Sequence record: PQ819470.1
Strand: one strand, 5' to 3'
Length of the DNA stretch: 64,000 nucleotides
Source: Escherichia phage ev_rybdy3
Shown: in pieces, positions 41,622 through 42,269 of the stretch
Layout: every line of letters begins with the position of its first letter
Numbering within the stretch: position 1 is the stretch's first letter
Translations under genes and position numbers: made by a program
Notes under the pieces: generated by a model
What the model saw: the letters and a program-made list of their open reading frames with translations, nothing else
Databases searched by the model: none
What the model was told of the DNA's origin: nothing

Positions 41622-42269
41622 ATGATGGCGAAGAAAACAACACCTACAAGATATCGAATTCATGGAATCCCAATCAAATATATCTCAAACTATGAAGAGT
41701 TCTATAAGATGAACTGGAAAGTGGTTCACAAGTTCTTCATGTACGATATCAGGGATTACCATGAAGCAGAGGATGTGGCACAGGAAGTGCTCTTGAATGC
41801 TTGGAGATTTGTCTTCGCTAAGCAGGATGAGAGAGTCCTAGAGGATGAGAAAGACCAAGAGCATATGACCTATCGAGTCAAGAATATTATCTGGTCTATA
41901 CGTTCAAATAGGCAGACTGTAGGGGACCGTCGTATCTACTCAATTCCAGAGGCTGATATGTTCCGTACTCCTGATATGGTTGATAGTCCTTTAGAGATTG
42001 CTATGGATAAGCAAGATTCTGTTGGAGACCCATTCATGGAGTCTCGTATCTTCTACTTCTTCCAAGATTTAAGTGATACGATGGATACTCAGAAGTTAGC
42101 CAATATGTTCTCTATGATCTTCTTGGGAATACCACACGATCACATTCAGAAAACCATTGGAATGTCACACGGAACATTCTACCGTAGATATGCGGAGTTA
42201 AAAGATCTGTATGAATATGTGGTAGAAAAACACTTCGATAAAGAAGAGTTTCAAGGATTGATTACATGA
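41622..42269 (+). CDS. phage-encoded sigma-70 family factor
   Basis: region-2-like [14 protein letters not shown] and C-terminal HTH (region-4-like). Confidence 0.6.

Follow-up and report, generated by a model that had tools for sequence, protein, structure and literature searches.

The phiEco32-type sigma factor switch of Escherichia phage ev_rybdy3 and candidate further promoters of its gp36 regulon

Does a phage that encodes a sigma factor of its own also carry the promoters which that factor reads, and where do they lie? The question is raised by an open reading frame (ORF) at 41622-42269 (+) in a stretch of 64,000 nucleotides (nt) from Escherichia phage ev_rybdy3 (PQ819470.1), referred to here as the window. 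A sequence-only reading had taken the product for a phage sigma factor, had listed motifs in front of several genes as its promoters, and had likened them to a motif that phiEco32-type phages use with their own sigma factor. The comparison was sound: promoters with the consensus tAATGTAtA, situated 6-8 nt upstream of transcription starts, have been published for phiEco32 (PMC4281155; PMC8948821), and the same system is present here. What the window holds is almost certainly an already known system, namely the published and structurally resolved phiEco32 switch. The identity of the orthologues and the presence, position and conservation of the promoters were computed in this work; core binding, transcription starts, the in vitro requirement for gp36 and gp79, and the contacts at atomic level are taken from the phiEco32 literature and would apply by analogy. 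The value of the main finding lies in the correct annotation of gp36, gp79 and four homologues of mapped promoters.

The ORF is open for 215 amino acids (aa). From residue 2 to residue 215 it aligns with the whole of PDB 9M7Y chain F (214 residues, entered as "RNA polymerase ECF sigma factor"), which is gp36 in the open complex solved by cryo-electron microscopy (cryo-EM) (E 2.8e-145). V29M is the sole substitution, and the gene is the orthologue of phiEco32 gene 36. Since the published protein has 214 aa, translation probably begins at the second ATG (41625). The product matches PHROG 1740 "RNA polymerase sigma factor" (E 1.8e-45), GenBank records name it "ECF sigma factor", and the gene lies between the homologues of genes 37 and 35, as in phiEco32. 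PMC12276001 lists 20 residues as contacts with the clamp helices, with the DNA at -10 and -35 and with the flap-tip helix, and all 20 are kept: D44, E47, E49, D50, E54, E79, H80, Y83, R84, W90, S91, S94, N95, M138, I142, F166, L167, Y186, R187 and F204. The segment described as region-2-like is the acidic helix that binds the clamp helices of RNA polymerase (RNAP), formed around the first five of these residues, and the segment described as region-4-like is the C-terminal helix-turn-helix in which Y186 and R187 read the -35 region. Judging from the near-identical solved structure, a sigma-2-like fold would sit on the clamp helices and a sigma-4-like fold on the flap-tip helix, with the linker in the cleft. 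Homology to region 4 was denied in 2022 (PMC8948821), and the sigma-4-like fold appeared in the structure of 2025 (PMC12276001).

The second component of the switch is encoded at 22353-22601 (+). This gp79 orthologue matches PDB 9M7Y_G / 9M7Z "gp79" over residues 1-82, the full length of its 82 aa (E 1.1e-51). In phiEco32, gp79 acts as an inhibitor of RNAP that carries sigma-70 and as a co-activator of RNAP that carries gp36, ousting region 4 of sigma-70 and steadying the C-terminal domain of gp36 (PMC12276001).

The gp36 holoenzyme transcribes the middle and late genes of phiEco32 from six mapped promoters, which precede genes 6, 13, 26, 40, 58 and 68 (PMC4281155; PMC8948821; PMC12276001). 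Over the 4 kb around the sigma gene (40000-44000), identity is 100% with Escherichia phage ev_rybdy8, 95-97% with many Kuravirus phages and ~95.6% with phiEco32, which places the window in a Kuravirus (phiEco32-like) phage. The window is reverse-complemented relative to the phiEco32 record and spans ~12.1-75.4 kb of the latter, with early and middle genes on the + strand (1 to ~45100) and late genes on the - strand (~45200-64000). The positions of P13 and P6 fall outside the window; homologues of the other four promoters are all present, on the coding strand, with the end of the 9-mer 36-59 nt before the ATG. Their sequences were compared with SU10 promoters taken from the SU10 supplement.

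The P68 homologue (28503-28538, +; 16.2 bits) has the -35 block TTGGTAGTAGATA at 28503-28515 and AAATGTATA at 28527-28535, ending 39 nt before the ATG of gene 68 (28575), and its sequence is that of P68 in SU10 and phiEco32. The P58 homologue (33621-33655, +; 17.2 bits) has TAGCAG at -38 to -33 and TAATGTATA at 33644-33652, ending 36 nt before the ATG of gene 58 (33689), and matches the SU10 promoter "between CDS56 and CDS57". The P40 homologue (39773-39807, +; 16.2 bits) has TAATGTATA at 39796-39804, ending 59 nt before the ATG of gene 40 (39864), and matches the SU10 promoter "between CDS37 and CDS38". These are the sites that had been pointed out at 28528 (the exact motif begins at 28527), 33644 and 39796. 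The list had been offered as one of middle genes, which is correct for P68, P58 and P40; gp36 serves late genes too, and P26, which the list omitted, gives the best score in the window. The P26 homologue (49685-49719, -; 19.2 bits) has TAATGTATA at 49688-49696 and the upstream block TAAGACTTA, ends 38 nt before the true ATG of gene 26 (49649), and has the sequence found upstream of phiEco32 gene 26 and in the SU10 late promoter. As listed mechanically, the gene 26 ORF (45228-49694, -) begins at an ATG within the TAATGTATA of P26; the true start at 49649 gives 4422 nt and 1473 aa, as in phiEco32.

The separation of these sites from the background is clear. When the window is scored with a matrix derived from the six promoters published for phiEco32, five sites reach 16.2-19.2 bits and the next best reaches 11.3, while 200 dinucleotide shuffles gave a mean of 0.12 sites of at least 16 bits and a maximum of 2. 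Exact 8-mers are intergenic in 5 of 5 cases (chance ~4e-6), the intergenic share of the genome being ~8.4%. A motif search, which had been suggested as a check, bore out the claim in the window to the extent of five high-scoring sites, four of them on the coding strand in front of genes.

Which bases of such promoters gp36 reads is known from phiEco32. In the cryo-EM open complex, which was built on P68, A-14 and A-13 are read by N95 and S91, the A opposite T-12 by S94, and G-11 by E79 and H80, while W90 and Y83 stack at the fork; further upstream, R187 reads the N7 of G-37 and Y186 contacts the T opposite A-34 (PMC12276001). P26 has been assayed in vitro, and mutation of -14A/-13A or -11G compromises transcription (PMC12276001).

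If the window works as phiEco32 does, the host sigma-70 RNAP would transcribe the early genes and probably a first pulse of the sigma gene. The latter would start from TGGACA-18-TATAAT (41574-41603, +), a site immediately in front of the sigma gene that resembles a sigma-70-type promoter and is a consensus match only (11 of 12 positions, 18-nt spacer); in the literature, too, a sigma-70 promoter with a spacer of 18 nt is predicted at this place (PMC4281155; PMC8948821). The gp36 orthologue (41625-42269) would then take the place of sigma-70 on core RNAP. Its N-terminal sigma-2-like domain, on the clamp helices, would read A-14 A-13 T-12 G-11 and open the DNA from -11, and its C-terminal sigma-4-like domain, on the flap-tip helix, would read a purine at -37 and A at -34. 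By evicting region 4 of sigma-70, gp79 would turn host and early transcription off, and by buttressing the C-terminal domain of gp36 it would give a 3-4-fold activation. Middle operons on the + strand would be driven from P68 (28527), P58 (33644) and P40 (39796), and late genes on the - strand from P26 (49696). We infer that the P40 operon continues into sigma gene 36 by readthrough, and therefore the sigma factor probably boosts its own synthesis. A near-motif, CTATAATGTTTAAGT (9.0 bits), lies at 41547-41561 (+) within gene 37, ~60 nt upstream of the sigma gene, and is probably without function. The -10 element of P40 itself, TAATGTATA, sits inside a palindrome, TAATGTATATTATACATAA; the palindrome is near-perfect at 39796-39814, where it reads TAATGTATA-T-TATACATAA, and a related one is found in phiEco32 (TAATGTATACTATACATAA) and SU7.

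The likeness to phiEco32 extends to genus, gene order, a gp36 with one substitution, a gp79 matched over 82 aa, and the sequences of P68, P58, P40 and P26 at orthologous positions. Apart from that substitution, small differences lie in the promoter flanks; for instance, -37 of P40 is G in the window and A in phiEco32, and the block upstream of P26 is TAAGACTTA in the window versus TAAGACCTA in phiEco32. A more distant relative is gp47 of Salmonella phage 7-11, a phage-encoded homologue with 15% identity, where late genes are driven from promoters at equivalent genome positions; the 7-11 promoters, however, have the form GTAAtg-(16)-aCTA, and that phage is without a gp79 homologue, host shut-off or a middle class (Lavysh et al. 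2022, PMC8948821). In T4, as the authors of the structure point out, AsiA and MotA likewise comprise a small phage protein that disables region 4 of sigma-70 and a second that supplies promoter specificity (PMC12276001), yet T4 retains sigma-70, in remodelled form, to serve its middle promoters, whereas the gp36 system displaces and replaces it. T4 gp55 differs in that its promoters consist of a -10-like element only, while gp36 reads the -35 region too. With group IV (ECF) factors the phage protein shares sigma-2-like and sigma-4-like domains, a linker through the active-site cleft, and binding to the clamp helices and the flap-tip helix, but it matches sequence models only below the cut-off. 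Unlike ECF factors, gp36 is not known to have an anti-sigma partner. Helix alpha-1 of gp36 is turned by ~70 degrees; its sigma-4-like domain has a compact form, in which alpha-4 is short and the flap-tip helix is turned by ~100 degrees; and gp36 needs or uses a phage co-activator (PMC12276001).

The fifth high-scoring site leads beyond the published set. An inverted copy of the motif had been noticed at ~39735, and it is indeed an exact TAATGTATA at 39735-39743 (-), which scores 16.3 bits with a matrix that does not include it. We refer to the whole element (39732-39767, -) as PL, a candidate seventh gp36 promoter. It carries A-14 A-13 T-12 G-11, and its -35 block at 39755-39767 is the 13-mer TTGGTAGTAGATA, which in the window occurs in PL and P68 only, the next best match having 2 mismatches; within it, TTGGTAG provides G-37 and A-34, and the spacing is identical to that of P68. 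PL points leftward, against the middle genes and away from P40, with the two -35 regions almost back to back. Among 21 phage sequences (14 distinct), which come from Kuravirus, Suseptimavirus and metagenomic contigs, PL keeps both TGGTAGTA.AT and TAATGTATAtA, and the positions of the 12-nt spacer between them are free while its length is constant. Conserved blocks around a free spacer of fixed length are the classical sign of a two-part promoter. The site is present in phiEco32 itself (+ strand of the record, ~36681-36713). The six promoters published for phiEco32, as listed in secondary sources, do not include it, and the Kuravirus, SU7 and YF01 papers and a 2026 small-RNA study contain no transcriptome and do not mention extra promoters. 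In one metagenomic contig, G-11 of PL is changed to A, which speaks against its function as a promoter. On balance we consider it likely, with some reservation, that PL is a real gp36 promoter.

What PL would transcribe is a separate matter. No same-strand gene begins 36-60 nt downstream of it; the only ORFs there are of 20-22 aa with non-ATG starts, and the start of the 20-22 aa ORF in the adjacent conserved block is not conserved. As no credible ORF follows PL, its product, if PL is active, would be non-coding or antisense. The putative transcript corresponds to a conserved non-coding block at 39566-39729 (-), in which a GC-rich core lies between a hairpin at the 5' end and a long one at the 3' end. 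This block of ~165 nt has a mean column identity of 94% across genera and is constant, while the flanking intergenic DNA and even gene 41 are variably present. Hairpin 1, the 5' one, begins 2-4 nt from the predicted start of PL. Its changes are from U-A to G-C once and from C-G to U-A once, with G-C or G-U at a third position, so that it contains two compensatory pairs and a broken pair in no sequence. Variants with G-U pairs, of the phiEco32 type in hairpin 1 and of XT73 in the 3' hairpin, fit an RNA of the - strand only. PL, which diverges from P40, may give rise to a conserved, structured non-coding or antisense RNA of at least ~160 nt, and its product may be a small RNA in its own right, an antisense RNA or a primer for replication. 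If this is true, an RNA facing the promoter of the sigma-gene operon would add a new regulatory layer to a model switch.

Nonetheless, the block can be explained without such an RNA. It is possible, though on the whole unlikely, that it is mainly a terminator or 3'-end processing region on the + strand for the middle operon driven by P58, in which case PL, if active, would yield only antisense or interfering transcription and no discrete functional RNA. An invariant TTTTTAT comes after the long 3' hairpin on the + strand, and no U-tract follows the hairpin on the - strand. Folding is better than in shuffled sequences for both strands, and for the + strand it is at least as good (z-score -3.74) as for the - strand (-2.78). 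Moreover, a fresh promoter, P40, follows directly, as would be expected past a terminator. Yet a simple scan for terminators gave no match at the block, the stem beside the T-run is AT-rich, conservation reaches ~90 nt past the hairpin, up to PL, and the strand-specific G-U pairs favour the - strand. Besides belonging to a putative PL transcript, the 3' hairpin may also terminate the upstream middle operon on the + strand. The covariation term is only -0.61 kcal/mol, with 2 compensatory pairs, both in hairpin 1; beyond hairpin 1 covariation is nil, because the sequences are too similar. Scans of IMG/VR and metagenomes added little diversity, and covariation support for the core and the 3' hairpin is still weak.

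It is also conceivable that the inverted copy at 39735-39743 is not a promoter at all. Together with P40 it forms an inverted pair of 9-mers 52 nt apart (TATACATTA...N52...TAATGTATA), and the two could be arms of an inverted repeat that acts at the level of DNA, for instance in an operator or a replication-origin element, the adjacent block then acting as DNA as well through its direct GGGACT repeats and CCTAGG palindrome. These short direct and inverted repeats, the missing downstream ORF, the lack of a canonical terminator on the - strand and the change of G-11 to A in one metagenomic relative are all in keeping with this explanation. We find it doubtful, as an inverted repeat fails to explain why the 13 nt upstream are identical to P68 at the same spacing or why the 12-nt spacer is unconserved, and as the pairing of hairpin 1 is kept through two compensatory changes and includes G-U pairs that are possible only in an RNA of the minus strand.

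Several observations concern the surroundings of the block. Its centre (39641-39700, -) exists in two unrelated forms. Most phages have one of 42 nt; the other, which measures ~70 nt and includes a separate hairpin, CTCTCA...TGAGAG, occurs in ECBP2, MN05, myPSH2311 and four or five metagenomic contigs. The two forms are swapped between conserved flanks, and their distribution is independent of genus. Rfam matches to 39300-40000 were at chance level only. E. coli genomes contained no similarity to the block, which therefore does not mimic a host RNA. The homologue of gene 41 (39450-39557, +) encodes a very hydrophobic peptide of 35 aa, MVTYILYFLAFLGIIFLSIILEFGLSKLVNYLGSK, and is convergent with the putative PL transcript. 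A type I toxin-antitoxin system made up of gene 41 and that transcript was set aside, gene 41 being deleted in relatives that keep PL and the block: it is absent from ECBP2, Bas86, Bas88, TH43, XT73 and E20-1, where both remain.

The resemblance of PL to P68 draws attention to the -35 region. At -38 to -33 the published promoters follow T-R-G-N-A-G/C (TGGTAG in P68, TAGCAG in P58, TAGTAC in P40 and TGGGAG in P6), and P13 and P26 carry TAAGACCTA there instead. The shared TAAGACCTA of these two late promoters lies at -38 to -30 (phiEco32 ~9080-9095 and 25993-26008; in the window, 49711-49719 (-), it reads TAAGACTTA). Perhaps this block, in contrast to the TTGGTAGT-type block of P68 and PL, marks the late as opposed to the middle class. 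Written post hoc and illustrative only, the pattern TRGNAG-N18-AATG has 5 matches in the window, all intergenic, against 1.46 expected, and TRGNAGT-N17-AATG, equally post hoc and illustrative, has 4 against 0.29 expected. Independent evidence comes from how each single site is conserved.

Two further sites with such a -35 element lie close to motifs that had been listed as promoters. Upstream of the holin/endolysin cassette, a candidate variant promoter which we call P16 (60901-60933, -) reads TTAGTAGT-N16-TAATGAAAC, with its 9-mer ending 39 nt before the holin ATG (60861) and with the geometry of P68 and PL. In 5 divergent phages TAATGAA is invariant, TTTAGnAGT is conserved and the spacer varies. 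Directly before it, after the tail-fibre gene, a conserved terminator hairpin (60935-60948, -; GCCCCTTCGGGGGC-TTT) takes a compensatory form, CCCTCTTCGGAGGG, in WFI101126. P16 may be a dedicated promoter of the lysis cassette, in which case the expression of holin and endolysin beyond a terminator would be accounted for. The holin-upstream element, like PL, is also found in phiEco32, though outside its published promoter lists, which are known from secondary sources. In the spacer between genes 117 and 116, a composite "split" element (5766-5809, +) reads aTGGTAGT-N16-TAATG-(2-3 nt)-TGTATATAGACC, with CTC between TAATG and TGTATATAGACC in the window and a 1-nt indel between the halves among relatives. 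TGGWAG-N16-GGTAATG is conserved in Kuravirus, Nieuwekanaalvirus and Suseptimavirus, with an invariant CTGTATATAGACC coming 2-3 nt later. Upstream of the split element, at 5710-5745 (+), a conserved TTGACAAACTAAATTCC..TTATAAA has a spacer of only 13 nt.

The motifs originally listed at these two places fared less well. The one at ~5797, CTCTGTATATAG, has T-C at -14/-13 in place of both contacted A's, and the one at ~60873, TAATATATA at 60874-60882 (-), has A for the contacted G at -11. It is very improbable that 5797 (TCTGTATATAG) and 60874 (TAATATATA) are genuine gp36 promoters as written. Both are indeed intergenic and on the coding strand, and the element at 5797 is conserved; however, they score 2.1 and 3.5 bits, respectively, versus at least 16.2 for real sites, the altered bases are ones whose mutation impairs transcription, and neither is among the mapped phiEco32 promoters. 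In addition, TAATATATA ends 14 nt before the holin ATG and 4 nt before its Shine-Dalgarno sequence, and it is not conserved in IME267 or KBNP1711. As a candidate promoter upstream of the holin gene, P16 looks better than TAATATATA. The split element at 5797 was likewise rejected as a canonical gp36 promoter, having no -14A/-13A when aligned by TGTATA.

Taken together, PL, P16 and the split element carry T-R-G-N-A-G at the exact spacing of P68, and the accessible literature does not report them. We tentatively propose, at somewhat less than even chances, that the gp36 regulon exceeds the six published promoters and includes two-part promoters with the -35 element T-R-G-N-A-G (TTGGTAGT in P68). 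A strong -35 element may offset a degenerate 3' half of the -10 element. If this is true, a -35 consensus would reconcile the older description of a "single-element promoter" with the structure of 2025, and it would aid the use of gp36 and gp79 as an orthogonal expression module.

Some points weigh against identifying the window with the phiEco32 switch and should be set against the evidence given above. General sigma factor models hardly recognize the protein: Pfam Sigma70_r2 gives 19.2 bits against a gathering cut-off of 24 (E 0.0011) and covers residues 25-63 only, Sigma70_r4 and r4_2 give zero matches at E up to 10, and NCBIfam TIGR02937 (sigma70-ECF) gives 24.2 bits against a cut-off of 42.9, with an alignment that extends over residues 23-192 and model positions 3-157 of 165. 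These values suggest a distant sigma-70 homologue, in line with the "distant homolog" of the literature. The experiments all stem from phiEco32 and none from the present isolate, and the published promoter list was taken from secondary literature, written partly by the same group and partly by others. Finally, raw motif counts are within chance: AATGTATA occurs 5 times versus 2.56 expected, with at least 5 in 14 of 100 shuffles, and the 9-mer TAATGTATA, with 1 mismatch allowed, has 14 occurrences where 20.5 would be expected. The part of the motif search that relied on enrichment did not hold, and the raw enrichment of AATGTATA or TAATGTATA was dropped as evidence, the counts not being above those of shuffles. 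The motif alone is unconvincing without position and homology; the non-random signal lies in position, orientation and conservation. That AT-rich sequence produced the motifs by chance and that the sigma factor relies on another signal is scarcely conceivable, for although the raw counts would allow it, the location, orientation and homology of the sites to mapped and structurally resolved promoters, the separation in the matrix scan and the conservation across genera argue against it, and published primer extension, in vitro transcription and cryo-EM have already refuted it in phiEco32.

Apart from the switch, the window departs from phiEco32 in several places. The tail-fibre region at 60990-62125 has no match in phiEco32, and in the early region several segments (~4830-5265, 10600-11700) are divergent from it or unmatched. 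Moreover, ~280 bp are missing from the window in the region of gene 34 (dNMP kinase; ~42669-42678), as are ~450 bp at ~44265-44280, which make up most of the HNH endonuclease gene 31.

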